Source of the DNA: an uncultured Gammaproteobacteria bacterium
GTDB lineage: Bacteria; Patescibacteriota; Microgenomatia; UBA8517
Direction: 5' to 3'
Assembly (NCBI GenBank): GCA_964599625.1
Contig: CAZRGC010000002.1
Coordinates: 7,883-71,882, forward strand
DNA: 64,000 nt
The position numbers were made by a program, and so were the translations under genes. Positions 17,057 to 57,105 of this stretch are shown in pieces; within the stretch, counting starts at the first letter, position 1; each line of letters opens with the position of its first letter. The notes below the pieces were generated by a model. It did no database searches. It was given only the letters and a program-made list of their open reading frames with translations, and was not told the origin of the DNA.

Positions 17057-18010
17057 CTACGCCTTCGTGTAAAACACGGATCTTCCGCGGCCCTGGGAGA
17101 GAAGTAGCCCCAGGTTCATAAGTTTGGAAAGGTCCCTGGAAGCTGTAATTTGCGAAACCCCAAACATTTTTTGATAATCTTTATTTGTGATTTTGGTGCC
17201 AGGTTTATCCATTTGTGCTAATAATTCCTTTTGCCTGATACTTAGCTTGACCAACGACTCACTTCGTTTATGGGGGACTGTTATTTTTTGGATAATGTCC
17301 AGAGTTTTTTCCAACGCCTGAACCATGCCGTCCGCATAATACTCTAGCCAAGTGGTTATTCCGGGATTTACAGAAAATTTACTTGTAAATGCAGTGTATT
17401 TTTCAATGTTTAACTTATGAAACATATCTACGCTGTACATTCCCCGAATGTCATAGCCATTTTTGTAAAGTGTAAGGTAAGCCAATAGCCCTGCAACCAT
17501 GTTGTTTCCATATTCCAAAAGCCTTGCGCTTACAAACTCGGAGTGCATTATGCCTGCAAGGACAATCGGATGGTCTTTACCCTGATTAAGGAAGTTGAGT
17601 GCGTTAACAACCATTTTGGTCGACATATCTGTAACACCTTTCATCTTTCCCATGTAAGGCTTGCAAGCCAATAAATATATTTTTTTAACAGTATCTGTTG
17701 TTATTGGGTTTGGGTTAACAGTCCATTCTTCGTGTATATAATCAAAAAATTTTTTTAATGCAAAGATTTTTAGTTGAATTTGAGTTGGTTTCTTGGGGAA
17801 GGGGGATTCCAATATCTTTTCTATTTCGTATGGTTCCATATCATCACCATCCAAAGAAAGAATCCATCTGATTTTGTCTATTCTAAAAAACCACAAAAGG
17901 TCTCGCTCTACTTTGGTATTAATTGGGGTCGTTAATATTTTTATTCTAAGTCTGTCGGCGTTTGCCAACGATGATTTTATCTTTTCTGTAAGAGTATATG
18001 AGGTGTTCAT
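17057..18010 (-). CDS. Fic/DOC family protein with degenerate Fic motif and C-terminal winged HTH
   Basis: 317 aa; C-terminal KDYQKMFGVSQITASRDLSKLMNLGLLLSQGRGRSVFY typical of Fic-family wHTH; the HPFx(D/E)GNGR position reads ARLLEYGNNMVAG (no His/Arg). Confidence 0.6.
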   Translation of the reverse strand: MNTSYTLTEKIKSSLANADRLRIKILTTPINTKVERDLLWFFRIDKIRWILSLDGDDMEPYEIEKILESPFPKKPTQIQLKIFALKKFFDYIHEEWTVNPNPITTDTVKKIYLLACKPYMGKMKGVTDMSTKMVVNALNFLNQGKDHPIVLAGIMHSEFVSARLLEYGNNMVAGLLAYLTLYKNGYDIRGMYSVDMFHKLNIEKYTAFTSKFSVNPGITTWLEYYADGMVQALEKTLDIIQKITVPHKRSESLVKLSIRQKELLAQMDKPGTKITNKDYQKMFGVSQITASRDLSKLMNLGLLLSQGRGRSVFYTKA

Positions 18011-18248
18011 GGTGTATTACATTTTTTGTATCATATACTTATCATTGAGTCAAATTTTTTAGATATTAAAAAATCGAGGCTATTTTATAAAAAATGATAA
18101 GATTACGATAAGATTAAATATATCATCAAATACCCATTGACAGGATTATTACTATAGTAGGATACTTAATGTAGATTATTAGCTGCCCGCTTCAATAATT
18201 TAAAAAGAATCGGACAACTCTTGATCTTTAGAATGGAGGTGATCCGAC

Positions 18249-18389
18249 TTGTTTAACAACATTGGTACGTCAGAATTAGTAGTAATCGCATTAGTATTGT
18301 TGTTGCTTTTTGGTGGCAAAAAGCTCCCGGAGTTGGCACGAGGAATTGGCGACTCTATTAGGGAATTTAAAAAGGCCGTCAAAAGCTAG
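18249..18389 (+). CDS. tatA: twin-arginine translocase subunit TatA (paralog 1), TTG start
   Basis: (M)[45 protein letters not shown]; ggaggtga RBS 9 nt upstream; below the ORF-track size cutoff. Confidence 0.7.
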   Translation: MFNNIGTSELVVIALVLLLLFGGKKLPELARGIGDSIREFKKAVKS

Positions 18390-18399
18390 TCACATAAAA

Positions 18400-20955
18400 A
18401 TGAAAAACGCCAGAACTGTCCTACGCGTTTTCTCTCTGGCATTGAGTCTCTATCTGGCTGCAGCTTATTTTTTGGAAAGTGAAGTCCAAGCCGCAGCCGG
18501 GGGGATTCAAAGTTGTACTGTTGGTTCCACCTGCAAGGTGGGCGAGTTTTTGTATGATGACACTTCCACCCCAATATCCGGTGCAAGCTGTACTATAACC
18601 TCCAAGTATCCCGATAATTCAAGTTTTCTTTCGTCTCAGGCTATGAGTGGGGGTGGGGCAGATGGCTGGTATTATCATGAATTTACAACACCGTCTACAA
18701 CTGGCGTGTATCCAACTAGTGTTTGTTGCACCACAAGCGGTGACACACTTTGTATCGACAAAGGTTTTGAGTCAAAAGCCGCAAGTGCTACCGACACAGC
18801 ATCAATTGCATCCGCCGTATGGTCATATTCATCAAGAACGGTGTCTTCGTTTGGAACGCTGATTTCGGATATTTGGAATAACGCAACAAGAACAATTACG
18901 GGTGCAGGTCTATCAAGCGGACAACTTGCAACTCAAGATGATGTTGTTTCGGTCAGAAATAATGTAAATACCCTGCAAGATACTGTTGACAATCTTTCGG
19001 AGACAAACGGAGATCTAACTTCCATTGAGAAAAAAGTTGATGAGAACCGAATACTCCTGGAAAAGATAGTAAACAAACCGATTATCGAAAACGTATTGGA
19101 GGACACAACACCGGATCTAACTCAAAAAATAAAAGACTCCAGGGCGGTTGCTAATCAGTTGTTTGTGAATAATCAATTCCTTACTGCACAGAGCGCGCTT
19201 TTGAGTTCAAAGTTGTCGGGTCTTTCCGGGCGGGACACATTGAATTTTGTGATTTCATTATCCGGAATAGTGGGTGAACCTTCCGATACATCAAGCGCCA
19301 ATACAATGTTTGGCCAGGTGAACTTTCTCAGAGATTCGTGGAATTGGGAGGAGGCGGATCTTTTGCAGACAAAGCTTACTTCTGTCCAAAAGAGCCTTTC
19401 GGATTTGCAATCGGGCCTTGTAGATTACGAAAAAACTCCGCAAATGGCCTTTACGGTTAAACAAGTTGTCAAAGATTCACTGGCATTCGAAAAAGTTGTG
19501 GGAACAACGGTAGACAAAGAAGGTAAAAAGACTGTTTTCTCCAGGCTTTTATACACAGAAGGACTTGTTGCCAAACTTGATGAACGTGGCAAACAAGCGC
19601 AGTTGGTGTTGGGTGAGTATACAAAAACAAAAGATGACGCGACTGCCATCTCCAAAATATCCGACCTTAAGGCTCAGGTGATTGCCATAAACAAGGTTCC
19701 ATCTGTGGCATCAAGCCTTGTTGCAGTAAAACTTGACGGAGAAAAATCGATTAAAAACTCTCTCTTGGGTTTAATTGGTGTTGTCAATTCCAACAAAAAA
19801 CTTTTGGCCCTTGGGTCCGGGGAGACATTGGTTAATACCTGGTTGGAGTTGGGCAGTATCGTATTCAAAACAATTGCCACAAATCCGTCGACATTGATTT
19901 CGCAGGATGTGGAAATTAAGTACTATCTGCCCAAAGAGATAAGGCAGGAAGACGTTATCAAGACAGATGCCGGTCTTGAAGCAAAGTACGATGCGGAAAA
20001 AGATCAGATGTTTGTCCAGGGAAAGTTTAACCTTAAACCGGGTCAAACAAGAACATTCGAGATCGAAACCAAAGACATATGGGAAGTTACGCCCCAAGAA
20101 ATCGCAAGTTTCCGCTCGGAGATCAACGACCTTTTTAAGCCGTTGGAGAAAACAGCCTTCTTTGCTCAAGGTATAAGCCTGAAAAGCGACGCGCTTGCCT
20201 CACTTGACCAGATTGAGGCATTGCAGGCAAATGCAATAACACCTGAGGACAAAATTAGGTCTTATAGAGAGGCTGATATTCTTAAAAATTCAGTAGAAAC
20301 AAAAGTTGCCGGATTAAGGGACTTGGTTGCTCAGGCGAGCTCCGCCGGGAGCATGCTTGGGTTCGTTGGTGGCTCACAAACAATCGCCGTTTGGGGGATG
20401 ATAATAATGGTGGTTGCGGGATTTGTTGTTCTTTTGACCTACATGAAGTCTTTGATGTCGCCCAAAAAAGTCCAAAAGGTTAAAGAAGAAAAATCGGATG
20501 TTGTTAAGGCGGAGAAGCCTGTGTCTGCCAATCATGGCAAAAAAGGGTTGCACCCATTTGGTTTTGCTGCAATTGTGATTGCCACAAGTGCGGTAACCGC
20601 AGGTGCAACAACATATCTTGTCACAAAATCCGTATCCCAAACTTACGAAGCAAAACTCAAAGTTTTGGGTGAACAAACAGAGAAAAAAGAGTCCGAAGAA
20701 AAAATAAATTACGCGACTCCGGATGCTTCGCCTGCACCTGAAAGTTTTGGAGTAGGTGGGCAATACACAGTTGTCGTAAACGATACACCAACCGGATATC
20801 TCAAGGTAAGATCTTCCCCGGGCGGTGTCGAAATAGGGCATGTTATTCCTGGCGACAAACTAATGTATATAAGCGAGAATACGGATTGGTATCAAGTTGA
20901 GCTTAAGTCGGGGGACACCGGATGGATCTCCAAAAAATATTCAGTGATGGAGTGA
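18400..20955 (+). CDS. large surface protein: signal peptide, Cys-containing N-domain, long helical region, TM segment, C-terminal SH3b domain
   Basis: Likely start MKNARTVLRVFSLALSLYLAAAYF at 18400, 10 nt after the tatA stop; C-terminal GYLKVRSSPGGVEIGHVIPGDKLMYISENTDWYQVELKSGDTGWISKKY is SH3_3-like. Confidence 0.6.
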   Translation: MKNARTVLRVFSLALSLYLAAAYFLESEVQAAAGGIQSCTVGSTCKVGEFLYDDTSTPISGASCTITSKYPDNSSFLSSQAMSGGGADGWYYHEFTTPSTTGVYPTSVCCTTSGDTLCIDKGFESKAASATDTASIASAVWSYSSRTVSSFGTLISDIWNNATRTITGAGLSSGQLATQDDVVSVRNNVNTLQDTVDNLSETNGDLTSIEKKVDENRILLEKIVNKPIIENVLEDTTPDLTQKIKDSRAVANQLFVNNQFLTAQSALLSSKLSGLSGRDTLNFVISLSGIVGEPSDTSSANTMFGQVNFLRDSWNWEEADLLQTKLTSVQKSLSDLQSGLVDYEKTPQMAFTVKQVVKDSLAFEKVVGTTVDKEGKKTVFSRLLYTEGLVAKLDERGKQAQLVLGEYTKTKDDATAISKISDLKAQVIAINKVPSVASSLVAVKLDGEKSIKNSLLGLIGVVNSNKKLLALGSGETLVNTWLELGSIVFKTIATNPSTLISQDVEIKYYLPKEIRQEDVIKTDAGLEAKYDAEKDQMFVQGKFNLKPGQTRTFEIETKDIWEVTPQEIASFRSEINDLFKPLEKTAFFAQGISLKSDALASLDQIEALQANAITPEDKIRSYREADILKNSVETKVAGLRDLVAQASSAGSMLGFVGGSQTIAVWGMIIMVVAGFVVLLTYMKSLMSPKKVQKVKEEKSDVVKAEKPVSANHGKKGLHPFGFAAIVIATSAVTAGATTYLVTKSVSQTYEAKLKVLGEQTEKKESEEKINYATPDASPAPESFGVGGQYTVVVNDTPTGYLKVRSSPGGVEIGHVIPGDKLMYISENTDWYQVELKSGDTGWISKKYSVME

Positions 20956-20958
20956 TCT

Positions 20959-21348
20959 TCAGATATAGGAGTTATACAACCAGTGAACAAAGATTGCTAC
21001 AATGGTTGCTATCAAAGACGTAAGGTAACCCCTCCTGGTACCCAAATAAATGATTAAAAACGTAAATGAATGGAGAACCGATGTAAGCAAGAAACGGACC
21101 CCCAAAAGCCTCACATCGCCGTACAGGTTAATTTTAAAGATATATAACACCGTCTCTGACATTGCAAAAAAAACACCTGCAAGTAGTGCGGATTTTATTC
21201 CATTTTTTTGTGATGGTCCGCGGTTAATAATAAATAAAACTACTGCAAGTTTAAAAAGCTCTTCAACAAAATGGGGGTAGGGAAGGAGAAGCTCAATAGG
21301 CCACACCAAAAAAGGTCCAAAAAGGGAGAACAATAGAGAATAGTGCAT
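20959..21348 (-). CDS. small polytopic membrane protein (hypothetical)
   Basis: 129 aa, 4 TM helices. Confidence 0.45.
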   Translation of the reverse strand: MHYSLLFSLFGPFLVWPIELLLPYPHFVEELFKLAVVLFIINRGPSQKNGIKSALLAGVFFAMSETVLYIFKINLYGDVRLLGVRFLLTSVLHSFTFLIIYLGTRRGYLTSLIATIVAIFVHWLYNSYI

Positions 21349-21423
21349 AGCGTTTAGCGTATAGTTCTAATCTTGGTTCCTAACTAACTATACCCTATAC
21401 GCTGTAATCTATGCCCATGTTTT

Positions 21424-21562
21424 ATTTTTTGGTCGATTTCTTGAATTCGCGGATAGCGTCTCCTATTCCTTTTCCAAGTTCGGGAAGTTTTTTGCCTCCG
21501 AAAAGGACCAAAAGAATTACAAAAATAACTACCAATTCTGTCATGCCGATATTTTTAAACAT
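21424..21562 (-). CDS. tatA: TatA (paralog 2)
   Basis: [46 protein letters not shown]; immediately downstream of tatC; not in the ORF track (under 60 aa). Confidence 0.7.
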
Positions 21563-21590
21563 TTTTTTGCACCCCCTTTCAATAAACCAA

Positions 21591-22331
21591 TTACTCTTTA
21601 ATCAAAATCCTGCTCAATATTAATGTAACCTCGAATAAAATTACAAGAGGCATCGCCAGAAGAATATCTGCAAGAATTGAATCGATTGGCAAAAGTACAG
21701 CAAATACCAGTGCGCCAAAGTATACCCATTTGCGCTGTTTTTCTATTTGTGGGCGTTTGAGAGCTTTGAATTTCATCAAAAGGAGAAGAACTATCGGGAA
21801 CTGGAAACCAACACCAAGTATGGCCGATGACATAAGAACAACAGATAAAAGTCTGCTTATATCCAATATGTTTCCGATACCCAAAGATGTGGATTGAGAC
21901 AGAAATATCTCGATTTGCCATTTCATTATGAACGCACCGAAACTAAAACCAACCAGGAAAAGTACTATTGAGAACGGTAGAAAATAAAGAAGGGCTTTGT
22001 ACTCTGAACTTTTGAGCGCGGGTTTAAGAAAAGACAATATTTGAGAAATTATCAGCGGAAAAGCAAGGACTATGCCGGTTATAAATCCGCAGGAGAATGC
22101 CAAATTAATAAATTGGAATGGGGATGTAAAAACTATGTTGATACCTTTAAGGCTAAATATATCTACAACAAAACCAATTATTTTTTCGTAAAAAACAAAA
22201 CCTGCTAATGCACCTATCAAAAAAACTGAAGCTGCAAAAAAAACTCTTTTTCTGGCCTCCAATAGCAGGGGATAATACTTGTTTATAGTCTCTTGCATAG
22301 TAGCACCTCCAAGCAATCCTTTTTCATCCAT
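21591..22331 (-). CDS. tatC: twin-arginine translocase subunit TatC
   Basis: 246 aa, 6 TM helices, typical TatC layout. Confidence 0.8.
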
Positions 22332-22388
22332 AGTATGAGTTTAAGAAAGAAGCGAGGTTAGTGCAAGTAAATCAAAGAAAAAGTAGAG

Positions 22389-22547
22389 TTATTCTTCTTT
22401 TTCGTCACCGTCGTCTTTAGAAGCTTTTTTATATTCTTGAATTGACTGACCCAAACCTTTGAAGAACTCGGGAATTTTTCTCCCTCCAAAAAGGAAGATA
22501 AGTATTAAAGCTATTACAATAATTTCACCAAGTCCAATTCCTGTCAT
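22389..22547 (-). CDS. tatA: TatA (paralog 3)
   Basis: MTGIGLGEIIVIALILIFLFGGRKIPEFFKGLGQSIQEYKKASKDDGDEKEE; 2 nt downstream of paralog 4. Confidence 0.7.
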   Translation of the reverse strand: MTGIGLGEIIVIALILIFLFGGRKIPEFFKGLGQSIQEYKKASKDDGDEKEE

Positions 22548-22549
22548 TT

Positions 22550-22750
22550 TTATTCTTCTTTTTCTTCCTCGTCTTTTTCTACACTATCTTTGGCGTCCTT
22601 GAAGTCGTCTTTTATTTTTTTGAACTCTTTTGTGGTTTCACCGGCTGCTTTGCCAAGCTCAACAATTTTTTTGCTTCCGAAGAAAACGATAATGATAACC
22701 CCAATTACTATTAGTTCGCCGAGTCCGATATTTTTAATGAAATTGAACAT
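22550..22750 (-). CDS. tatA: TatA (paralog 4)
   Basis: MFNFIKNIGLGELIVIGVIIIVFFGSKKIVELGKAAGETTKEFKKIKDD... acidic tail. Confidence 0.7.
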   Translation of the reverse strand: MFNFIKNIGLGELIVIGVIIIVFFGSKKIVELGKAAGETTKEFKKIKDDFKDAKDSVEKDEEEKEE

Positions 22751-22848: not shown

Positions 22849-23241
22849 TTACCGCTTGTAGGCCATTACATATAACATCTTGATGATTTCAGTTAATAGA
22901 ATAATGACATTGTCGAATTCTTCATTGGAGACAAAATCGAGCTCTTTGGCGATAATTAGTTGTGTTTCAACTTCAAGAGATGAGCCATAAGCAATCGAGT
23001 AAAACTGAATATATTCTTTATGAGATCTGCGGCCATATCCTTCTGCAATGTTGGATGCTATTGAGATAGAAGCACGCCTAATTTGGTCTGTTAATGAGTA
23101 AATCTCTGTTTTTGGAAACTTTTTTGTTAGTTTGTAAACAGTTTTTGTGAGGACTATCGACTTTTGCCATACAACCAAGTCTTTGTACGTCAGTATTTTG
23201 TGTCCTTGTGCCATAACTATTCTCAAATCTCTAATCACCAT
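22849..23241 (-). CDS. four-helix-bundle protein of the 23S rRNA intervening-sequence / Avd-like family
   Basis: 130 aa; DLVVWQKS ... FPKTEIYSLTDQIRRASISIASNIAEGYGRRSHKEYIQFYSIAYGSSLEVETQL matches the PF05635-type signature (recalled). Confidence 0.75.
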   Translation of the reverse strand: MVIRDLRIVMAQGHKILTYKDLVVWQKSIVLTKTVYKLTKKFPKTEIYSLTDQIRRASISIASNIAEGYGRRSHKEYIQFYSIAYGSSLEVETQLIIAKELDFVSNEEFDNVIILLTEIIKMLYVMAYKR

Positions 23242-23303
23242 TTCCTAATCACTTTGTTCCTGTTCTATTAACTATTCCCTAGTCCCTAATCTCTAATCAC
23301 TAC
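23229..23303. repeat. right inverted repeats of the same family (several CTAATCAC(T/C) / CCCTAATC copies)
   Basis: ctaatcacc (23231-23239), cctaatcact (23244-23253), ccctagtccctaatctctaatcactac (23277-23303). Confidence 0.55.
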
Positions 23304-24598
23304 TTAAGAGAGGCAATTGTCGCTTTTACTTTTGCATCCTTTAGGTTGCGCCCTGCAGTGCCTGGAGTTACATGGCCGGAGATAACCTCGTCCCAGACGG
23401 CATCGGCAATTGCGCTAGCCGACTCTCCGCCTGCTTGAGTTTCTATAAATGTTCCTGTTCCGTTGTCGCGGGTTGCCGCAACAGAGTTGCCAGAGAAGGT
23501 GTGATTGAGTCTGACTCCCGTTCTTGTTACGCCGGTTCCCACATCAATCCCATAACCGGTGTTGTTGAATATAAGATTTGTTTCAAAAATATTGTCGGTG
23601 ACACCTGACCCGGAAAGGTCGATTCCGTCTGCGCCGTTGCCTGAAAGAATACTTTGTCTCACATTTAGTTTTGTTGTGGTTGCACCAATTTTTATTCCTG
23701 TTCCGGTAGAATCTTCAATTGCGCAGGTGTCAATTTGAGTCCTTGAGGAGCTACTGATATCTATTCCGTTTCCTGTGACTGATTTGATCCAACAGTTTTT
23801 GACGAGGCAATTATCGCCGGTAATTGTTATCCCGTTATCTGTTCCACCGGCTGCAGTTTGTACATAAAACCCTTCAAACTCCACCGTGTCACCGCTGATG
23901 TTGACGGTTGGGGACCCATTTGTTGTTGGAACGAGTTGGAACTGATATCCTGCACCCCGGACTTTGAGTCCTGCTTTGGTAATTGTCAGTTTTTCTGTTG
24001 TGGTTGTGACACCACCACTTGCCGTGGCGAGTGCAAAAATAATATCTCCCGCACCGGCTGTGGCCAGAGTTTGAGCTTGGGCAAATGTTGCAACTGCCTT
24101 TGCGGGGGTAAGTCCGTCATTGGCATCACTGCCGCTTGTTGGATTCCAGTAATAAATTGTTCCGACACTTCTGCTTCTACCCCTCAGACTTTCCAACATG
24201 TAAAGTGTTGCATAATCTGCATCTGCTTGAATAATAGATGGGGAAGTGGATTGGGCAATGTTTACCTGAGTAAACGCGGTTGGTTTTATCGGGTTATTTG
24301 AATATTGATTAACAGCAACCAGGTTGCCTCCTGAAACCGTACAAAGAATTGTGTCAGGGCCGGATCTTGCCTCGAACGCAATGCGCCAGTCGTTAATAAG
24401 CTCCAAAGTGATACCGATGTAAGCGCCGCCACCTAGGGACTGTTTGCCATATGCGTTTGCAATATGGCCGTAATCAAGATTTTCCAGCCTTTCTTCGTAC
24501 ACCCGTATTTGGTTTACCAAATCCTGAATAGTTACGGATGTTTGGGGTGCATCTACTTGTATAACTTTTTCGTATTTGAAAAATGTAAGATTTGCCAT
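23300..24598 (-). CDS. right-handed beta-helix protein, phage tail-fibre/tailspike-like
   Basis: 432 aa; repeated NGITITGDNCLVKNCWIKSVTGNGIDISSSS / TGTGIKIG / GNGADGIDLSG / NNTGYGIDVG parallel beta-helix repeats. Confidence 0.65.
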   Translation of the reverse strand: MANLTFFKYEKVIQVDAPQTSVTIQDLVNQIRVYEERLENLDYGHIANAYGKQSLGGGAYIGITLELINDWRIAFEARSGPDTILCTVSGGNLVAVNQYSNNPIKPTAFTQVNIAQSTSPSIIQADADYATLYMLESLRGRSRSVGTIYYWNPTSGSDANDGLTPAKAVATFAQAQTLATAGAGDIIFALATASGGVTTTTEKLTITKAGLKVRGAGYQFQLVPTTNGSPTVNISGDTVEFEGFYVQTAAGGTDNGITITGDNCLVKNCWIKSVTGNGIDISSSSRTQIDTCAIEDSTGTGIKIGATTTKLNVRQSILSGNGADGIDLSGSGVTDNIFETNLIFNNTGYGIDVGTGVTRTGVRLNHTFSGNSVAATRDNGTGTFIETQAGGESASAIADAVWDEVISGHVTPGTAGRNLKDAKVKATIASLK

Positions 24599-24618
24599 AT
24601 TTTGTTAGCGATTTGAGA

Positions 24619-24637
24619 ATAGGGTATAGGGTGTAGT
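24619..24637. repeat. partial repeat-family copy (aatagggtatagggtgtag)
   Basis: Shares the agggtatag core with 22824-22834 and, as reverse complement, 21386-21402. Confidence 0.4.
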
Positions 24638-24670
24638 TTGGCTGTAAAACCGTACGCCAGACACCGTCTG

Positions 24671-25594
24671 CTATCTCGTAAATACTGAGACTTTTATTTT
24701 GGGAATCAAACTTCCGTTTTCTGTTTTGTAGGTAATATCAGGGTGGGCTTTTATCCCCAGGAAATTTTCAACGCCGATGTTTTTCAAAAGCGATGATCCT
24801 TTGTCTAGGCTAATCTCGGTAGAGCTTTCCTGAGAAAATGCCTGTTTGCCTGGATCGTAAATAAAATCTATTCTTTCTGCACTTATGTTTTGCCTAAGTT
24901 TATTAAGGTTCATCCCAGTTGAATTCAGAAGATTCCAGTCTTTGCTTTGTGCGTCATAAAATGACAGGGGAATAAGTCCTTTGTCAAAAAGAGCGACAAA
25001 GTGGCCAATGTGTTCCGCAATTTTAACTGCAAACTCGCCGATGCCAATACTTACTTGCGGGTTGTCCTTAAGATATTCCAATAGGTGCCTGTTTACCAGA
25101 AATATATTCCCTTTTTCATTTTGGGCAAAATATACATAGCTGTTGTTTAGCTGAAAAAGAGGGTTGAGTTTGTATTTGGCAAATATTCTTTTGGTGGCGG
25201 AATCTATGCCGTTTGGATTAAGTGTCAAAAGGTTTGCGTCGTTCACCAAGTAGGCTTGGGTTTGCGGATCAAATATCCTGAGTCCTATGTTTTTTGTAAC
25301 ATTTTTAAGAAGGTTTAACGAAACTCCGTCGTTCCAATCACACGTCAAGGTGATGTGATTTGATATTCTAGTATCAGTTAAATCATGTTTTATATTAGTA
25401 CTTAAAGAAGCGGTGAGGGGTGTTCCCACATAAAAAATAGTCGCAAAGTCGTCGCCTGTTTTTTTGACCTCTATTTCGCCAGTAAAAGTAATCAGGTAAT
25501 CTATTATTTTTTGAAGATTTTCCTTGGGGCTTGCTTCCATCCGTTCAACTGTAAGATGATATTGGACTTGTTTATCGAAATCTTTGTATATCAT
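24671..25594 (-). CDS. hypothetical protein
   Basis: 307-aa ORF; no motif recognised. Confidence 0.5.
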   Translation of the reverse strand: MIYKDFDKQVQYHLTVERMEASPKENLQKIIDYLITFTGEIEVKKTGDDFATIFYVGTPLTASLSTNIKHDLTDTRISNHITLTCDWNDGVSLNLLKNVTKNIGLRIFDPQTQAYLVNDANLLTLNPNGIDSATKRIFAKYKLNPLFQLNNSYVYFAQNEKGNIFLVNRHLLEYLKDNPQVSIGIGEFAVKIAEHIGHFVALFDKGLIPLSFYDAQSKDWNLLNSTGMNLNKLRQNISAERIDFIYDPGKQAFSQESSTEISLDKGSSLLKNIGVENFLGIKAHPDITYKTENGSLIPKIKVSVFTR

Positions 25595-25860
25595 TTGGCA
25601 GACCTCTTTAGCTTTTTAAAATATCGGGCCTCTTTTATATCTGCTTTAAGAGAGTTGACCATTTCTTGAATACGCTTTTTTTCTGTCATTTCTTTTTTGA
25701 TTGCATCTTTAAAAATTTGAATATTGGCATTTATCTTTTTCTTGTAACTCAGTAGATCTTTTACACCAAAGCTCCTGTCGATAATAACCTTGTTGGGGTC
25801 GTAGTTGGGGTTGGGGATAGTCCTGACTTTTAGAGCCGGTCTTTTTTTACTTGTTAGCAT
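25591..25860 (-). CDS. hypothetical basic protein
   Basis: 89 aa; overlaps its upstream neighbour by 4 nt. Confidence 0.4.
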   Translation of the reverse strand: MLTSKKRPALKVRTIPNPNYDPNKVIIDRSFGVKDLLSYKKKINANIQIFKDAIKKEMTEKKRIQEMVNSLKADIKEARYFKKLKRSAK

Positions 25861-26032
25861 CTATGATTGCAATTATTTGATAGAGTCTTTGAATCTCACG
25901 TTCTTCTTGTTTGTGTTGGCTTTCATCTTGAAACAAGCTAAGGTTTCTTTCCCTTTTTTCTATTTCTGCGGCTACAGAATCACGGTCGTACTGCATGGCT
26001 TCCTCTTTGGTTATGGGTTTGTAATCGTTCAC
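25847..26032 (-). CDS. hypothetical small charged protein
   Basis: 61 aa. Confidence 0.25.
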   Translation of the reverse strand: MNDYKPITKEEAMQYDRDSVAAEIEKRERNLSLFQDESQHKQEEREIQRLYQIIAIIDANK

Positions 26033-26078
26033 AGCACAAACATGTTAGCACACAGGTAAATTATTCAAAAGAAGGTGG

Positions 26079-26507
26079 TTAATTAAATCTGTCCCAAAAC
26101 CCTTTTTTCTTGTTTTCGCTTGTTTCCTCTTGAGTTTTTTTGCTAACGAACCTTCCTCCGGGACCTCTAACAACTCTCGTTTGGGGGGTGTTGGGATCTT
26201 CTAGCTCTTCCTGTTCTTTACTTAGCTCTTCTACAACTTCTTCTGCTTCTTCAACCTCTTTTTTATATTCCTCTTTGTCCTGGAACAGATCCCTCTCTTT
26301 CGCCTTTTCGACTTTTTCCAGTTTGGCTTTCTTGGCTTGTGCCGCAGACTTTTCGAGATTTTCAAAATGTTTGTCGATTGCAGACCTTAGTTTGTTCTCT
26401 GAAGACTCACGAAATATCACCATCTCTGCTCTGTTTCTGGCAATGAAAACTATATCATCACCATTTAGTGATTGCGAAATACTGTAACCTTTGTATGAAT
26501 TAGCCAT
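26079..26507 (-). CDS. hypothetical protein with acidic coiled-coil region
   Basis: 142 aa; KEEYKKEVEEAEEVVEELSKEQEELED. Confidence 0.45.
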   Translation of the reverse strand: MANSYKGYSISQSLNGDDIVFIARNRAEMVIFRESSENKLRSAIDKHFENLEKSAAQAKKAKLEKVEKAKERDLFQDKEEYKKEVEEAEEVVEELSKEQEELEDPNTPQTRVVRGPGGRFVSKKTQEETSENKKKGFWDRFN

Positions 26508-26516
26508 AATTAACTA

Positions 26517-29462
26517 TTAAGTGATAATTGTGTCAGATGTTCTAACGATAGAAACAGTCATACCGGTTGATGTCACAGTCGAGTCGGATTCGTAAGGCAA
26601 AATAGGGGAGCTGCCCGCGGTTGACCTTCTGGCACGGACCCTTACAGGAATATCTGCGCTATAAGTAATTGTTGCAGCCTCTGTTCCGGGTGTTCCATCG
26701 GATCCTGTTATCTCGTATGAATCAAGCATTGGAACATACCATGTATCTTGGGGAGATGTTGTTGTTGCAACAGGTAGGACGTTTAGTTTGATATTGTCAC
26801 CAGTTGTTTGTGATGCAATGGCGGGGGAGATGGTGACCGTATTGTTGTCTGTAATAACCGTAATATAGGAAACTGCGTTTCCGCGGGTAACGTTTACTAC
26901 GATATCTCCTACCTTGGAGCTTGCGAAAGCACCGGTTTCCACGATGGTTGTTGTGTTTGTGCCTGAATCAGCTGCGGCAATGTCGCTACTGGCCAAGGTA
27001 AATGTTGTACCGGTCCAACTTGAAAAACGAATACGATATTCTGCATTTGCGGATGTGTCAACAAGCCTTATAACACCACCTGCACTTCTACCTGGTTCAT
27101 CAACCGTAATTGAGGAGCCCATTACCGCGGTTGTTGCCAAAGCAGATTGAACTGTGGCGTTGTACCTGTTTTTGATAATGTTTCCACCTGAGCCGTCGAG
27201 CCTAAAGACTGCAATCTTATCTCCAGACCTAGTGTTACTTACAGTAAGTGTGACTTTGGTTGGGGCAACCACCACGTTGTTGTTGTCGTCTGTGAGCTGG
27301 AAGTTGTTGAGGTCGGAGTTAAGATAATCTGTAAGAACAAGTCCGGGTGCACAGAAAAACTTTCCTCCTGCGAAAGTGCCCATGGGGGCAGCTGCAACTG
27401 GGGTGATAGATGCAACCGGGGTGGCGCCGGTGATTGTAACGTAATTTGATCCGTCGACTTGTATGTTATTTGTTTGATTAAATGTTCCTCTGGCATTTCT
27501 AAGAATAAGTATTTTGTCTGTTGTATTGTGATTGACAACAGTTCCTGTGTATCCTGTAGAAACTTGAGTAACTGTTGCACCATCTGCAATTGACCCTGTA
27601 ATGGTGTCATAAATAATACGAGTGTCGCTTCCCAAATAAAATTGGCCTTCTATGGTTTGTGATCCGGAATCAATATCTGCGCTTGATCCGCGTCTGGTGA
27701 TGTATTTTGTCCATTGATAAACCTTACCCAACGAATTTTGATTGCAGTCAAGTGTTATGGAATAATTTTCTGGGGTTCCGTTTTCGTCAATGTCGTTTGA
27801 ACCACCTGTCGAAAGACCTCCAAAAGTAAGAGTGGGAGGTGTGCCACTTTCAAAGAATGTGGTGCCCGATGTTGTTGCTGGTCCTGCGTCTGCTGGCGTG
27901 CCAGCCGTACAGGTTCCGTCACCATCTGCTGTACCTGTGTATTCCACTACAGAATCGGAGTTTGCAAAGTCTGTGATTGGATCACCAAGGAGATAGTACG
28001 TAAGAACTGGCGATGCACCGGTTCCACCAACTGCTGTAAGTTTGCCGCGCTTTGTGGCAGCTGCCCAGCTTGCGCCTACATATATGTAATTACCAGAGTT
28101 GAATGTTCCGGATCCGGATGAGCCGGTGAATGACCTGTAACCCGTTTGATTATCCAAGTCGTTACCCGTCTGCAGAGGGATAGGGTTACGTCCTCCGGAA
28201 GTAAGATCCACTGAATAGTAGGAATAAGTCTTACTATATTGACGCGCATAAACGTAAATATAACCTTCGTCTGTTTCGGTTCCAAGTTCTTTTACGTTTA
28301 CCAAAATATCGATGTGGTCTGTTGTAAGTCCTGTTGTTTGGTCGCTCCACCAATCGGTTGTGCCTTTGTAGGCCAAAAGGTTGCTTCCGTTTTGTCTGAT
28401 GTAAATATGTGAATAGGTTTCAATTGTACCGATGGAGTAAATGTTTGCCCAAAGTGATTCTCCACCGGAAACTGCAGCTGTCGCTTGTGTTACAGAACCA
28501 GTGCCTCCAATGAAACCTTGATCAAGTACTGGGTTTGTAGAATATGCACCCGCCACAAGTGCCCTAATGTAAAAAAGACTTTGTGACCCGTTAAGGGATG
28601 TTGCGGCCCAATCGGTTGGTACTGTAAATGTTAATACTTTTCCGTCTCCAACTGATGCTGTAAAACCTGTTGTACCGTCTGATACTCCGGACAAAGCAGC
28701 CCAAGTTGAGCCATTCCAATATTGCCAGGTAACGCTTCCTCCAACTCCCGCTGTTCCGTTGGCATAGTCAAAAATAACTTTTTTAAACTTTTGTGAATAT
28801 CCAATGGCACAATAGTCAGACGTATCCTCTGAAGCGGGGAACACCTGCCAGTCACCGTTGCCTGCCGAGTTAGCATCTGTTGATTCATCTACAAATGTTG
28901 TGTTATCCACCTGCCAAACTTGGCTTATCGCAGCGTTTGACACGGCAACAGTACCGGAAGTCGAATCCCAATCATTGGCGGATGCATTGCTGTCTGGCCT
29001 TATCCACATAACTTTGGGGGAAAGTACTGTATTGAAGTCCAAAAGTGTTCCCGAATCGCCACCTGTTGCGTTTGTAATTGTTCTGCCTATATCGGTCGTA
29101 TCAAAATCTGTACCTGTAGTGTAAGTTGCACGGACAATGCCTGTGTTGGTTCCAGTAACTCTGTCCCACGAAGCGGTCTTGAGAGCGCCGCCTGTAAGGT
29201 GTTCTACGGTGGTCCTATCAATAAACCATGGATCTTTGTCTCCTGCATCGATAATGCCGATTGTGTACTCTGTTGGTGTCTGTGCACTCATGGGAACACC
29301 GTCGTCCATTTGGCCCAAATCATCAAACAAATCCTGGAGAGCAGAGTAGAGTTGGTTCACGGTTCTAGTGCCGGTGGAAGAACCTGTCCATTCTATCCTC
29401 TTTTGTCGATTTTCCGCACTGTAATAGACTGTGAAGTCACCTGAGAGTATTGTGTCGGCCAT
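26517..29462 (-). CDS. giant Ser/Thr/Gly-rich surface or tail-fibre-like protein (G0)
   Basis: 981 aa; shares the WQYWNGSTWAALSGVSDGTTGF module with G3 (38541..42017). Confidence 0.65.
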   Translation of the reverse strand: MADTILSGDFTVYYSAENRQKRIEWTGSSTGTRTVNQLYSALQDLFDDLGQMDDGVPMSAQTPTEYTIGIIDAGDKDPWFIDRTTVEHLTGGALKTASWDRVTGTNTGIVRATYTTGTDFDTTDIGRTITNATGGDSGTLLDFNTVLSPKVMWIRPDSNASANDWDSTSGTVAVSNAAISQVWQVDNTTFVDESTDANSAGNGDWQVFPASEDTSDYCAIGYSQKFKKVIFDYANGTAGVGGSVTWQYWNGSTWAALSGVSDGTTGFTASVGDGKVLTFTVPTDWAATSLNGSQSLFYIRALVAGAYSTNPVLDQGFIGGTGSVTQATAAVSGGESLWANIYSIGTIETYSHIYIRQNGSNLLAYKGTTDWWSDQTTGLTTDHIDILVNVKELGTETDEGYIYVYARQYSKTYSYYSVDLTSGGRNPIPLQTGNDLDNQTGYRSFTGSSGSGTFNSGNYIYVGASWAAATKRGKLTAVGGTGASPVLTYYLLGDPITDFANSDSVVEYTGTADGDGTCTAGTPADAGPATTSGTTFFESGTPPTLTFGGLSTGGSNDIDENGTPENYSITLDCNQNSLGKVYQWTKYITRRGSSADIDSGSQTIEGQFYLGSDTRIIYDTITGSIADGATVTQVSTGYTGTVVNHNTTDKILILRNARGTFNQTNNIQVDGSNYVTITGATPVASITPVAAAPMGTFAGGKFFCAPGLVLTDYLNSDLNNFQLTDDNNNVVVAPTKVTLTVSNTRSGDKIAVFRLDGSGGNIIKNRYNATVQSALATTAVMGSSITVDEPGRSAGGVIRLVDTSANAEYRIRFSSWTGTTFTLASSDIAAADSGTNTTTIVETGAFASSKVGDIVVNVTRGNAVSYITVITDNNTVTISPAIASQTTGDNIKLNVLPVATTTSPQDTWYVPMLDSYEITGSDGTPGTEAATITYSADIPVRVRARRSTAGSSPILPYESDSTVTSTGMTVSIVRTSDTIIT

Positions 29463-29721
29463 AATTCTTGATAGAACCGCACTCCCGTTACATGGCAGTG
29501 AAGTCTAAAAAGAGTATATGTAAGCGGCAGAAAGGGTGTCAATAGGGTTTAACTATTAGCACCGAAATTGACATATTAGAGTAGGAATTGATATAGATTT
29601 TCTTTAACTTTTTGCGGTAATTTTTTCACCAAAAAGCTATTTATTTTTCAAAAAAATTTTTTTTGGACTTTGAGTTGTTGCAAAACCTGATACATTTGTG
29701 CCGAGAAAGATGCAGATATAG

Positions 29722-32025
29722 TTATGCCGTAGTATCTTCTATTAAAGTTATTGTGGTTGTGAATCCGGAAGATGTAATTGTTCCGGTTGTTGACGCGGGG
29801 TAATACTTTGTGTCCCCGGTTGAGGATTTTCTTACTCTGATATAAATATCTGTGTCCGATGTGTAATTAAATGTTTCTGTGGCAATCCCCGAGGCGTTTG
29901 TGTCTTCGTTCATGAGTTGCAAAGCATCGCTGGATTGATAGATGGCTGTTTGTGCGTTTTCAACGGGAGAGTTGTTTGCATCTACTACGGTTACCTTCAA
30001 AGTAACGGCATTATTTTTAACAATTGTCGCACCAGCCGTCCTAACACTTGGAGTACTTCCGCCGCCTGTTACATTAATTGTTACAGTACCGCTTGCTATG
30101 TTTACATAAATTGCTTCATTTCCGGTTGACCCGTCGGTTCCTGCGTATCCACTGAAAGTGTTTCCATCAAAGTCGAAAGCACCTGCTGTCCCAGACACCT
30201 CAATGGCGTGTCCTGTGCCACTGCTTACGAAGGAACAATTTGTTATATTTTCAAGGTCTGAAACTGTGGCTGAGGTGACTTTTGTGTTTGTAAACGTACA
30301 ATTATTTAAGACTGCTGAATTCTGAGTAAATGTAGTGCAGTTAATAAACGACACGGTGTCTAGTGTAACTGTTGATCTAAGTGTGACTGTGGCGTTGACG
30401 ACAGAAGTGCCAAGAAAATTTACATCCGCACTCGCCGAATGTGAGGAGTTGAAGCGCCAGTAGTAAGACGAGTCCGACACAAACAAACAGTTGGTGAAAT
30501 GTAGTAGGTCGTTTGAATCTACCCCATAGAATTCCACTCCAAGGGAGTTGTTGTTGACATGGAAGTCGACATAATCTGTTTCATCAGCCTGTGTAGGCCA
30601 CTGGAATGTTTTCAAGTTGCAAGAAATGCCAATGCTCGCGACCCCGCCAAACTGGAGTGGAATCCAGATTTGTCCCAAAGCACCGGTTTGTTGGATCACG
30701 GGAATGTTTCCGCAACCAGAGTTAACCATTGTTACTAAATCATTAAAATTGAACGGATTGGTGGTTGTTCCTCCTGCGATTACAGCTGTTCTGAGTTCCC
30801 AAAGTTCGTTCCAAAGAACAGAAGGTGCTCCGTAATATCCTGATGAGCCGAAAGCAAGGTAATCCAACGACGCAAAATCCGCGGTTCCTGCAGAGTCGTA
30901 TTGTGTGCTGGTGTAGCTTGGCTCAATCAAAAAGTTGTTGCGGGCACCAGGGTTGTCTGTCTTACTAAACTGCCCACCCACAACCCAGGCTCGCCAATTA
31001 CCTGAAGTTGAACCTAAAATAATATATTTTCCACCCTGAACAGCCTTCCCTGTGTCTACATAGTCTCGTGGAGCCAGATGCAGGTATGTTCCAAATATTA
31101 AGTCCCCAGTTGTTACATCGATAGGCGAAGCACGGTTCAGTTCTACATGGTTGAGGTTCGTTGTAGATGAAGCCCCTGCATTCCTCATTGATCCTCGAAA
31201 CGGATTGTAACCAGAATCGGCGGTTGTGGCGACGGCCACACCTGTGACAGTCTTGCCTGCAACAGATGTTATGGCAATGCTGACTGCAGCTATATAAGTA
31301 CCAATATCGGGACCGGTGTCACCCGTAGTTCCCGTTAATGATGATATAAGCACAGATGGGGTGACTGAGAGCGGGATATAGGGTGGCTTGATTGTTCCGC
31401 TTGATCCATCGCGGATTTCTATAATCTGACCTCTTCCGTCATCAGCAGTTGCTCCCCACAGAGAAGGAGCAGAAACTACTGTTGAGGCAGATGGAACAAA
31501 AGAGTAAGCAGCAGCAAGCCCACCAGCTGCTACGTCGATTGCGGCAAGATTCACCCAAGGCGGCAAGTGTGATGTACCAGCTGTTGTATCCTGATTCCTT
31601 GAATGAATAACTATGGAATTATCATAAGCGGTTGTAAGTCCAACCCCTGTAAATGGTAGAGTGGAGCTATCTGAACTTTGCCGGGCAGAGGTTGGGATGG
31701 CATCAGCAACGGTTGAGCCGTAAACATCTTTAACAGCGATAATGATTCCGGCACAAGTTTCGCTTGTGAGAGTAAAGGTAACTGTCTCTGAAGAAGATGT
31801 TGCGCGTTTTGCCCATATTCCACCAGCCGAACCCGCAGTTGTCCCGCTTTGTATATTAGTCCATCCACCGGGGGTGGAGAAGTTTGCTGCCGTGTCTTTG
31901 CCAAGACATGCAACCAAAAGATCGCCAGTCTGGTGCTCCGGCATCTCCATTACCATGTTTGCAGTAGCGGTAGAGTAGAGCGTAAAAGCTGTGTCGCGTA
32001 TCTCAGCCATATTTAAAAAAATCAT
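29722..32025 (-). CDS. giant beta-helix surface protein paralog G1
   Basis: 767 aa; N-domain (GDLLVACLGKD ... GGIWAKRATSSSET); NC-containing beta-helix repeats (FTNCLFVSDSSYYWRF); conserved C-terminal module ending YIRVRKSSTGDTKYYP ... TITLIEDTTA. Confidence 0.7.
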   Translation of the reverse strand: MIFLNMAEIRDTAFTLYSTATANMVMEMPEHQTGDLLVACLGKDTAANFSTPGGWTNIQSGTTAGSAGGIWAKRATSSSETVTFTLTSETCAGIIIAVKDVYGSTVADAIPTSARQSSDSSTLPFTGVGLTTAYDNSIVIHSRNQDTTAGTSHLPPWVNLAAIDVAAGGLAAAYSFVPSASTVVSAPSLWGATADDGRGQIIEIRDGSSGTIKPPYIPLSVTPSVLISSLTGTTGDTGPDIGTYIAAVSIAITSVAGKTVTGVAVATTADSGYNPFRGSMRNAGASSTTNLNHVELNRASPIDVTTGDLIFGTYLHLAPRDYVDTGKAVQGGKYIILGSTSGNWRAWVVGGQFSKTDNPGARNNFLIEPSYTSTQYDSAGTADFASLDYLAFGSSGYYGAPSVLWNELWELRTAVIAGGTTTNPFNFNDLVTMVNSGCGNIPVIQQTGALGQIWIPLQFGGVASIGISCNLKTFQWPTQADETDYVDFHVNNNSLGVEFYGVDSNDLLHFTNCLFVSDSSYYWRFNSSHSASADVNFLGTSVVNATVTLRSTVTLDTVSFINCTTFTQNSAVLNNCTFTNTKVTSATVSDLENITNCSFVSSGTGHAIEVSGTAGAFDFDGNTFSGYAGTDGSTGNEAIYVNIASGTVTINVTGGGSTPSVRTAGATIVKNNAVTLKVTVVDANNSPVENAQTAIYQSSDALQLMNEDTNASGIATETFNYTSDTDIYIRVRKSSTGDTKYYPASTTGTITSSGFTTTITLIEDTTA

Positions 32026-33741: not shown

Positions 33742-34176
33742 ATGGCAGTCAAAAAACACAAAAAAATATCAGTACTCGTTGTAGAGGATGATAAAAATAT
33801 TGCAATTGCATATGAAATGAAATTTGCCAGAGTGGGTTTTAATGCGAAAATTGCAAATAGCGGGAGAGCAGCTTTTGAAGCATTAAAGAGTTTTAGTCCC
33901 GATGTGATAGTTTTAGATCTTATTATGCCGGTTATTGATGGATTCGAGGTTTTGAGGCAACTTAAAAATCATCCCCATCACAAAAAAATTCCAGTAATTG
34001 TTGCTTCAAATCTGGGCGGAGAAACAGATATAAATGAAGCTTATGAATTGGGGGCTGCAGAGTATATTGTCAAAACAAAATCAACGCTTGAAGATTTAGT
34101 ATCCAAAGTGAATCAGCTTGCAGAACAATATCAGGAAACAACAGTGTCTTCAATCAAAGTGACAGTTGCTGAATAG
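33742..34176 (+). CDS. single-domain response regulator (REC only, RR1)
   Basis: VLVVEDDKN ... DVIVLDLIMPVIDG ... receiver fold, no output domain; 3' end overlaps G2 convergently by 46 nt. Confidence 0.8.
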   Translation: MAVKKHKKISVLVVEDDKNIAIAYEMKFARVGFNAKIANSGRAAFEALKSFSPDVIVLDLIMPVIDGFEVLRQLKNHPHHKKIPVIVASNLGGETDINEAYELGAAEYIVKTKSTLEDLVSKVNQLAEQYQETTVSSIKVTVAE

Positions 34177-44679: not shown

Positions 44680-45669
44680 TTACACGCTTGGGTGGTTTTG
44701 GTCAAGTGGGAACGGATCATCTTTTACAAACTTTATCCAGTCATAATATGTAATCACAAGTGTTATAAAAAGCGTAAGTGATATAAATACAACGTTTACT
44801 AACATCATTTCATACAAATCTTTAAAAAGCTTGTTTTGGGGAATTCCAATTATTGCATAAAAGTCGCCATCTCCAGATGACTCCTGGATTTTTGAATAGA
44901 AAAATCGACGTTCTTTACCATCAAAACCTTTCTCCACAAAATTGCCAGCATAACCGCCGGAAAGTACCCTTTTGACAAGTTCTGTTTGGCTTTGGTCAGT
45001 TCCAAAGTAAGCTTCTGTTTCTGGATATCTCGACAAAACTGTTCCATGCCTGTCAATTACATCAATAACCGAACCTTTAGGGAAGTCGTATGGTGTTGTT
45101 ACCTCTTGCAACCATTCTAAATTGAGACTGGTAATAATGACTGCACTTGTGGTTGAATCACTAACAATTGGATAAACAAACGGAACAATTGGACGTTGGG
45201 TTACCCTTCCTACCCGGAATTCACCGACAGTAAACTCCATTTTTCTTACTGCCTTTTTGTAGTAGTCTAAATCTGAAACATTTACCGAAACACCTTCCGG
45301 ACTAGAACTACAAAAAACATCACCGTTTTTATCCACTATGTTAAAACTTGTGTATTGGTTTCCGAATTCTGCGTGTATTTCTGCCATTTCTTTATTGCAA
45401 AGATCAACTTCGGATGGGTTTATGTGATCTAGAGAAGATATAGTTTTAAGAATTGCCTTGGTGGTTCTAATCTTTTCTCTATATGTTTGCGAAACTGTTT
45501 CTAATATAAAATTAACGTCATTTTGCGTTTCTACAAAACCAATGTGGTTAAGTCTTATATATGAGTAAGTTGTCAGCAAAAACATAGGAATCAATGAGTG
45601 CACGACTATAAAAAAAATCTTGAACTTAAGACTCCTGTGATTGTGTTTGGGTTTTGGAATATTTTTCAT
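44680..45669 (-). CDS. Cache-like sensor membrane protein lacking kinase domains (orphan or truncated HK sensor)
   Basis: TM-Cache-TM layout homologous to the HK1/HK2 sensors (NIVDKNGDVFCSSSP ... DLDYYKK versus ATNGDVICSAVP ... KDKLYFKK); ends after TM2 without HisKA/HATPase. Confidence 0.6.
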   Translation of the reverse strand: MKNIPKPKHNHRSLKFKIFFIVVHSLIPMFLLTTYSYIRLNHIGFVETQNDVNFILETVSQTYREKIRTTKAILKTISSLDHINPSEVDLCNKEMAEIHAEFGNQYTSFNIVDKNGDVFCSSSPEGVSVNVSDLDYYKKAVRKMEFTVGEFRVGRVTQRPIVPFVYPIVSDSTTSAVIITSLNLEWLQEVTTPYDFPKGSVIDVIDRHGTVLSRYPETEAYFGTDQSQTELVKRVLSGGYAGNFVEKGFDGKERRFFYSKIQESSGDGDFYAIIGIPQNKLFKDLYEMMLVNVVFISLTLFITLVITYYDWIKFVKDDPFPLDQNHPSV

Positions 45670-46876: not shown

Positions 46877-46879
46877 ACT

Positions 46880-57103: not shown

Positions 57104-57105
57104 TA

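Follow-up and report, generated by a model that had tools for sequence, protein, structure and literature searches.

The 64-kb stretch of DNA analyzed here (64,000 nucleotides of contig CAZRGC010000002.1, hereafter the window) carries a locus for twin-arginine translocation (Tat), the export of folded proteins, in which a single tatC gene is accompanied by four short tatA genes, one of them lying directly in front of a gene for a giant SH3b surface protein. We read it as a Microgenomates Tat locus in the layout typical of its lineage, i.e., a TatA/TatC translocase with one tatC and diverged TatA classes, whose G copy is paired with the giant protein, and we give this reading a probability of about 0.7. 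TatA and TatC were assigned from the open reading frame (ORF) list and the raw sequence, followed by Pfam and NCBIfam profile searches with curated thresholds. The features concerned are the following.

18249-18389, plus strand: tatA_G (A4), 46 aa, TTG start, GGAGG Shine-Dalgarno sequence 9 nt upstream, class G
18400-20955, plus strand: giant SH3b surface protein gene, 851 aa, ATG start at 18400
20959-21348, minus strand: PrsW-like intramembrane metalloprotease gene, 129 aa, last gene of the tat operon
21422-21562, minus strand: tatA_S (A3), 46 aa, directly downstream of tatC, class S
21591-22298, minus strand: tatC, 235 aa from the ATG at 22298 (the longest ORF, from 22331, has 246 aa)
22389-22547, minus strand: tatA_U1 (A2), 52 aa, directly upstream of tatC, class U1 (FGGxKIPEF)
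22550-22750, minus strand: tatA_U2 (A1), 66 aa, opening the operon, class U2 (FGSKK, a long acidic tail and no Pro following the hinge)
17057-18010, minus strand: winged helix-turn-helix (HTH) protein gene, 317 aa, divergent from tatA_G
18137-18166, plus strand: candidate promoter TTGACA-18-GATACT upstream of tatA_G, 10/12 matches
45673-46293, minus strand: candidate Tat cargo gene, 206 aa, internal DVDRRAFLK signal

Four intact TatA-family genes (46, 46, 52 and 66 aa) and one tatC are found within positions 18249-22750. A1, A2 and A3 flank tatC in one operon, while A4 is 3 kb away. Downstream of A3 comes the PrsW-like gene, whose end is separated by 3 nt from the stop codon of the giant gene, which converges on it. 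An initial annotation of the window had described four TatA-type genes within 4.5 kb, a tandem pair with 2 nt between them, a tatA gene 10 nt before an 851-aa surface protein without a Tat motif, and two transcription units with the gene identities given above. All of this was borne out by the ORFs, the spacings and the Pfam matches: A1 stops 2 nt before A2 starts, A4 stops 10 nt before the ATG of the giant gene, and the signal peptide of the giant has no twin arginine (RR). The same annotation held the distal tatA to be fused in an operon with the giant gene; the two are indeed adjacent, but they are separate genes.

All four ORFs show the TatA layout of a short N-terminus, a single hydrophobic helix, an F-G hinge and a basic amphipathic helix, with a Glu at the start of the membrane helix in every copy. 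Eleven positions (I5, G6, E9, F21, G22, K25, E28, G34, E39, K41 and K42) are invariant among them, and A3 and A4 are of equal length and 72% identical. Against PF02416 (TatA_B_E, gathering score 21) A4, A3, A2 and A1 scored 64.6, 63.9, 50.1 and 46.1 bits (E-values of 3e-12 to 5e-18), and since these scores are far above the gathering score the matches are not due to chance. With TIGR01411 (cut-off 53.9) A4 (61.5) and A3 (61.1) pass, while A2 (48.2) and A1 (47.1) fall slightly below. No fifth TatA-like ORF was found in the 64-kb window with a hidden Markov model (HMM) built from the four genes.

It had also been raised that some copies might be pseudogenes. Three of the ORFs are indeed shorter than 60 aa, A4 starts with TTG and A1 has no obvious Shine-Dalgarno sequence, features that pseudogenes, chance ORFs or assembly artefacts would share. 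We give this explanation practically no weight, and consider it rejected by three observations: every copy has a significant Pfam match, same-position orthologs occur on dozens of independent contigs, and synonymous changes are in excess. The last point comes from codon differences to the orthologs in the closest relative (locus L001, TatC 81% identical), in which synonymous and non-synonymous differences number 25/0 for A4, 15/5 for A3, 19/14 for A2 and 26/18 for A1; L001 also shares the TTG start of A4. Judged by these codon differences, all four genes are intact and under purifying selection, A4 being the most constrained.

A TatB character of one of the paralogs, which the initial annotation had left to be checked, was rejected on three grounds. 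The TatB model TIGR01410 (cut-off 56.5) gave 37.1, 35.7, 22.3 and 28.3 bits, so that none reaches it, and each copy scores higher with the TatA/TatE model than with the TatB model. The hinges are FGG or FGS, unlike the G-P hinge of TatB. Among solved structures, the best match of A1 is Bacillus subtilis TatAd and that of A4 a bacterial TatA, with TatAd second; solved TatB chains rank below TatA chains for both. As for TatC, it matches PF00902 with 129.7 bits over profile positions 3-208 of 208. Its start is most likely the ATG at 22298 rather than the first ATG of the ORF at 22331, given that the former has a GGAGGTG Shine-Dalgarno sequence and that the database copy of this TatC has 235 aa. 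The N-terminal ExRKR motif, as read from the sequence, is retained; when compared by eye, LLEARKRV matches the E. coli motif LIELRKRL. In E. coli TatC the acidic residues of the site that binds the twin arginine are E15 and E103. The Glu of the TatC segment PALKSSEYK aligns with E. coli TatC E103. By its gene content the system is of the TatAC type, with no recognizable TatB, as in low-GC Gram-positive bacteria (PMC6708511).

The arrangement is shared with many relatives. A genome scan with TatC returned six loci, all in metagenome-assembled genomes of Patescibacteria, including Woesebacteria and Daviesbacteria, and the entire layout of the window is reproduced in three of them (L001, L002 and L006). 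The records of L001 (CAZRJH010000004.1) and L002 (CAZTGB010000007.1) are third-party annotation entries titled 'uncultured Gammaproteobacteria bacterium', their gene content and order being those of Microgenomates; the title probably reflects a wrong taxonomic label. Database homologs of the giant protein number 118, and the named ones belong to Woese-, Levy-, Davies- or Roizmanbacteria or to 'Microgenomates'. A metagenome scan with an alignment of the giant protein added 80 loci, 30-56% identical to the window protein, for a total of 86, which were annotated with a TatA HMM and BLAST. Overall, the relatives are Woese-, Davies-, Levy- or Roizmanbacteria or unclassified Patescibacteria, and it is through them that the organism is placed as a Microgenomates bacterium, within the Patescibacteria or Candidate Phyla Radiation (CPR).

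In most of the 80 metagenome loci one cluster is conserved: the HTH gene diverges from tatA_G and the giant gene, which converge on an operon of, read from the giant side, prsW-like, tatA_S, tatC, tatA_U1 and tatA_U2, sometimes continued by further upstream copies (U3, U4 and so on). A collinear variant with all genes on one strand, in the order tatC, several tatA, tatA_G, giant and prsW, occurs in L072, L074, L077 and L085. Copy numbers were taken from 34 non-redundant loci in which tatC has 3 kb or more of sequence on either side; two tatA genes were counted in 2 loci, three in 8, four in 15, five in 3, six in 4, seven in 1 and eight in 1. The four copies of the window are thus the commonest state of the clade and not an outlier. 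The expansion of tatA that had been singled out as notable is therefore real as to its four copies, but it is not peculiar to this genome, being the usual layout in much of the Microgenomates, with 2-8 per tatC and four as the commonest number. At the upper end, L044 has seven tatA genes, and L015 (13787-15844 and 9835-9993) has eight around one tatC, with a tandem of six upstream, a single copy downstream and another in front of the giant gene.

Within this cluster the copies fall into classes according to position. Class G (about 48 aa) and class S (about 50 aa) each have a consensus of their own, class U1 (about 50 aa) carries FGgKKIPEF, and class U2 (median 69 aa) carries FGsKK and a long acidic tail, with a Pro after the hinge in no scorable member. 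Additional upstream copies are U1-like and U2-like in alternation. Identity between G and S is 0.56 and within each of them 0.60, and in the few lineages without G the S copy bears the G-type signature ELA[RK]G. Because G and S are sister classes and S has the G signature where G is missing, G may well have arisen as a duplicate of S. Taken together, position-specific signatures and lengths across the 86 loci and the purifying selection on all four genes point to specialized isoforms rather than to extra copies alone, in agreement with the suggestion first made for the window.

A simpler possibility is that redundant tatA genes merely raise the supply of TatA, and that the copy before the giant gene rides a strong promoter with no tie to the giant. 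TatA is needed in large excess over TatC. It is also the most abundant Tat component (PMC6708511), and an explanation by dosage could account for the equal length and 72% identity of A3 and A4, for a G-S similarity that nearly equals the similarity within the classes, and for copy numbers of 2 to 8 among related genomes, as dosage tuning predicts. It fits less well with class signatures and lengths that persist across loci whose giants are only 30-40% identical, with U2 copies that always lack the Pro and keep the long tail, and with an adjacency of tatA and the giant gene that survives both rearrangement and separation from tatC. Moreover, a count of 25 synonymous and no non-synonymous differences is unusually strict for a redundant copy. 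We therefore regard dosage alone as a rather unlikely account.

The pairing of tatA with the giant gene is the most strongly conserved feature of the locus. In 63 of the 69 loci with enough upstream sequence a tatA gene precedes the giant gene by 2-38 nt; when giants are collapsed at 90% identity, this holds for 49 of 54 clusters. Some tat gene is found within 3 kb of the giant gene in all 69, and tatC lies no more than 3 kb from it in 36 of the 40 non-redundant cases whose downstream sequence extends for 3 kb or more. In L054, L061, L062, L067 and L076 the tatA-giant pair occurs in a locus without tatC. Since the adjacency outlasts rearrangement and divergence to about 30% identity, which is the usual signature, functional coupling of the two genes is suggested. 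Translational coupling is suggested by the distance of 10 nt between the tatA stop and the start of the giant gene, which lacks its own Shine-Dalgarno sequence. A homolog of the 317-aa protein lies divergently upstream of the tatA-giant pair in 42 of 57 loci with at least 1.5 kb of upstream sequence. This protein (17057-18010) has a C-terminal winged HTH with weak HTH_DeoR/ArsR matches and a match to phrog_5978; it may be a regulator of the tatA-giant unit. A scan for promoters and terminators gave nothing above shuffled expectation, returning the one candidate promoter listed above and no terminator at the convergent junction, and an Rfam search of the intergenic regions for regulatory RNA gave only tRNA-Ala.

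An AlphaFold2 model of the giant protein was built from 37 homologs, with a mean predicted local distance difference test score (pLDDT) of 74. From the N-terminus it comprises a signal peptide, a Cys-containing beta-sandwich (residues 37-126), disordered repeats and a confident helical bundle (240-470), followed by a second beta-sandwich (477-557), long helices, a first transmembrane helix (TM1, 660-685), a Lys-rich loop, a second transmembrane helix (TM2, 719-754) and the SH3b domain (790-850); TM1 and TM2 form a membrane hairpin in the C-terminal part. The only Pfam domain is SH3_3 (PF08239; residues 800-847, 32 bits vs. a threshold of 27), which is modeled with pLDDT above 90 and matches solved SH3b structures with TM-scores up to 0.76. 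A Foldseek search of the fold against the PDB matched the SH3b and generic immunoglobulin-like parts and nothing else. TM1 (FVGGxQxxAVWG...GF...YM) ranks with the best-conserved parts of the protein, and this strong conservation suggests a specific interaction partner in the membrane. In all homologs the signal peptide is of the Sec type and has AxA sites.

The question then arises of whether the giant is itself exported with the help of Tat. Its candidacy as a canonical Tat substrate was rejected, as is taken up again below. A less orthodox proposal is that it is the client of a dedicated TatA: the N-terminal part would pass through Sec, while TM2 and the fast-folding SH3b domain would be integrated via TatA_G by means of a non-RR motif. 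The conserved direct pairing would be in line with this, and so would the tat operons of Bacillus, which carry cargo genes such as phoD with tatAdCd (PMC6708511, PMC3827258). With mean Kyte-Doolittle values of 2.11 for TM2 and 2.68 for TM1, TM2 is consistently the less hydrophobic helix; it has many Ser, Gly, Ala and Thr residues, a basic residue comes after it, and in these features it resembles the Tat-inserted last helices of dual Sec-Tat proteins (PMC5449189), although in a protein without RR this is only a lead. However, a twin arginine before TM2 is not conserved: it is present in 2 of 31 giant homologs, the homologs vary at this site, and the window protein has KK, which normally blocks Tat. 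Furthermore, giants without an upstream tatA have the same architecture as the paired ones, and the bona fide cargo family of the same organisms, described below, has a strict RR, so that the specificity of TatC looks canonical. We consider the client proposal improbable.

The second constant neighbor is the PrsW-like gene, found in 50 of 52 loci on the tatC strand and downstream of that gene. Its product in the window matches PF13367 with 25.3 bits (threshold 23.5) over profile positions 52-172 of 196 and is, with 129 aa, shorter than typical PrsW proteins; the catalytic PrsW motifs (EExxK, SE, H and HxxxN) show at least 90% conservation across 46 orthologs. It could be proposed that the giant and this protease are accessory factors of the translocase, comparable to WprA of B. 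subtilis, with the giant as a wall-anchored scaffold that would assist folded cargo in passing or binding to the cell wall, and the protease clearing signal peptides or membrane hairpins left behind. Both genes lie within or abut the tat operon in nearly all loci, the conserved TM1 suggests a specific membrane contact, and the cargo family is predicted to leave a three-helix remnant on cleavage. In B. subtilis, secretion by TatAyCy requires the wall protease WprA, which also interacts with Tat (PMC6708511). On the other side, the putative interaction of the giant with Tat is drawn from gene context, Foldseek found no structural similarity of the giant to any known Tat partner in the PDB, and three loci of the same group (L003-L005) have Tat genes with neither giant nor PrsW. 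An accessory role of this kind is in our opinion a minor possibility.

A broader version of these ideas would have tatA_G work with the giant outside the RR pathway, either by driving the integration of TM2 and SH3b or with the giant and the PrsW-like protein as new structural or quality-control subunits of a Tat machine of CPR type. We find this doubtful; if true, it would mean a TatA-family partner and a role new to the Tat systems studied so far.

Regarding substrates, a regular-expression scan of the 64-kb window found no N-terminal RR signal and one internal one, in the 206-aa protein of 45673-46293. This protein, which had been put forward as a Tat candidate, consists of a two-helix N-terminal hairpin, the internal DVDRRAFLK, an AEA|A cleavage site and a beta-rich domain of about 95 aa. 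Its residues 84-112 pass TIGR01409 (TAT_signal_seq) with 18.0 bits vs. 16.7, and its family has 652 homologs. Across 26 aligned, diverse homologs D83, R87, F89 and K91 never vary, R86 is conserved to at least 90%, and one variant has KR. The family motif, DxDRRxFLKLIGSAG...FTK[RK]AEA|AFFGSVPGPG, is preceded by two conserved membrane helices; the internal position of the Tat signal after these helices is atypical. Basic 'Sec-avoidance' residues follow the h-region of the signal. The mature domain is modeled with pLDDT above 90 from about residue 140, with neither an informative fold match nor an obvious metal or cofactor motif. In L059 a cargo homolog lies directly upstream of tatC on the same strand, and in L002, L003, L049, L073 and L076 homologs are found within 10 kb of tat genes. 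L003 also encodes a protein with a classical N-terminal TRREFLR. With its profile match and the near-invariant DRRxFLK across homologs, the protein is a plausible Tat cargo, and the 64 kb of genome examined are thus not devoid of putative Tat substrates, a lack that the initial annotation had named as a point against its reading.

The gene stands in a tandem with 46880-47521 and 46286-46876, all on the minus strand, and the three products resemble each other in an N-terminal two-helix hairpin with 'xxYYxF'; those of 46880-47521 and 46286-46876 end in SH3b, and some homologs of the RR protein have the hairpin twice. The operon of 45673-47521 also includes genes for a TPR protein (47547-49535) and a dCache protein (44680-45669), and a VKOR homolog (49575-50003) lies just upstream.

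Under the reading we favor, that of a lineage-typical TatA/TatC locus with diverged isoforms, U2, U1 and S would be made at levels tied to TatC and would act in the receptor complex, in analogy to TatB/TatE of E. coli (PMC5777986) and to the bifunctional TatAd/TatAy, together with TatAc, of Bacillus (PMC6708511). The separately transcribed G copy would be co-produced with the giant, probably via translational coupling; such a unit is suggested by the strong Shine-Dalgarno sequence, the candidate TTGACA promoter and the absence of non-synonymous changes in G. The system would export at least one widespread cargo family, with a strict DRRxFLK after a two-helix hairpin, as a substrate of the dual Sec-Tat type. 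The division of labor among the paralogs is proposed here by analogy.

Several observations weigh against this reading. No copy has TatB hallmarks, and the receptor-complex role is drawn from position and analogy. The separation of the classes is modest, the protein being so short: in an alignment of 47 columns identity is 0.48-0.60 within classes and 0.42-0.56 between them, G and S are barely distinct, and roughly every second S copy has the G-type 'ELA' signature. TatC scored 113.3 bits with TIGR00945, under the equivalog cut-off of 132.7, and because of this score it has to be seen as divergent. The loci L003-L005, which were found via TatC, consist of just tatA-tatA-tatC, while the sample was mostly gathered via the giant protein and is biased to genomes having it. 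The giant is not a canonical Tat substrate, since RR is absent from the N-terminus of every giant ORF listed and is not conserved before TM2. Its tie to Tat is one of synteny and would be compatible with a partner, an accessory factor or an unusual client. Finally, expression and transport in these organisms are read from the genes.

A comparison with described systems may help to place the locus. The TatAdCd, TatAyCy and TatAc components of B. subtilis resemble those of the window in combining TatA and TatC without TatB and in having several short TatA proteins (6-7.4 kDa), one encoded at a separate locus (PMC6708511). In Bacillus the cargo gene phoD is co-transcribed with tat genes, and PhoD is co-expressed with TatAdCd (PMC6708511). 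However, Bacillus has three tatA and two tatC genes, while the window has one tatC and four tatA and its relatives 2-8 tatA per tatC; the window has its paralogs in a tandem arrangement around tatC and a PrsW-like protease gene in the operon, and no RR signal is encoded by the gene that accompanies the separate tatA. WprA is, like the giant, an extracytoplasmic wall-associated protein tied to a Gram-positive-type Tat system (PMC6708511), but it has no sequence or fold relation to either the giant or the PrsW-like protein and is not encoded in a tat operon.

E. coli TatA, TatB and TatE are likewise single-span paralogs, with tatE at a separate locus, and labor is split between bulk TatA and the members of the receptor complex (PMC5777986). 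In contrast, the copies of the window have neither the hinge nor the model score of TatB and are far shorter (46-66 aa). Campylobacter jejuni has the paralogs TatA1 and TatA2 (cj1176c and cj0786) at separate loci, both with a part in the localization of Tat substrates (PMC4148689), but there are just two copies and the substrates are canonical RR proteins. The cargo candidate 45673-46293 compares with dual Sec-Tat proteins such as the actinobacterial Rieske proteins, with which it shares an even number of N-terminal helices, an internal RR, a moderately hydrophobic last helix and basic residues after it (PMC5449189). It differs in its small exported domain (about 95 aa) and its AxA site, and may be released rather than anchored.

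Other genes near the locus are mentioned here for completeness. Directly upstream of the tat operon, on the same strand, 22849-23241 (minus) encodes a '23S rRNA intervening sequence' four-helix-bundle protein (PF05635, 139 bits) with a weak bAvd-like match. Beyond it lies a block of large proteins of 432-1158 aa without signal peptides (23300-32025, 34131-36479 and 38541-42017, minus strand), one of which has a right-handed beta-helix while the rest have no Pfam matches; three share an N-terminal 'GDLL[VI]A'. The genes for the 432-, 981- and 767-aa proteins adjoin the tat locus in L001 too, and the first two also in L006. A prophage origin of these large genes was considered and dropped, as there were no PHROG matches. 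At 55889-63632 (plus strand) six consecutive genes encode proteins of 392-497 aa, each with an N-terminal membrane helix. In the last three an 'FWPAS'-type motif lies close to the N-terminus, and the set has the look of paralogs arrayed in tandem.

In the literature, Tat in Microgenomatia is described as TatA plus TatC (PMC9166423). The searchable literature held nothing more specific on multi-tatA loci in CPR bacteria, and a search on copy number was swamped by 'TATA box' papers; the link between tatA and the giant seems not to have been described before. The parts belong to the known families TatA, TatC, PrsW and SH3b, and the principle of transport is presumably standard. What is new relative to the systems described so far is the tandem array of two to eight tatA genes (four being the commonest number) around a single tatC with position-specific classes, the PrsW-like protease as a fixed member of the tat operon, the tight pairing of a tatA with a giant wall-binding membrane protein without RR, and a cargo family of very large size whose Tat signal is internal. 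This does not demonstrate any new principle, but the coupling of TatA and the giant and the paralog arrays deserve the attention of a Tat specialist.

CPR bacteria have tiny genomes and few cofactor enzymes. Despite such genomes an elaborate Tat locus is kept, with up to eight tatA genes per tatC, a membrane protease and the coupling of a tatA to a giant protein. The locus family constitutes a natural experiment on the roles of different TatA isoforms, the giant is a candidate for a new TatA partner or client without a twin-arginine signal, and the cargo family is large and simple, with its Tat signal inside the protein. For the biology of CPR bacteria, the locus links protein export to large surface proteins that are thought to mediate attachment to host cells.

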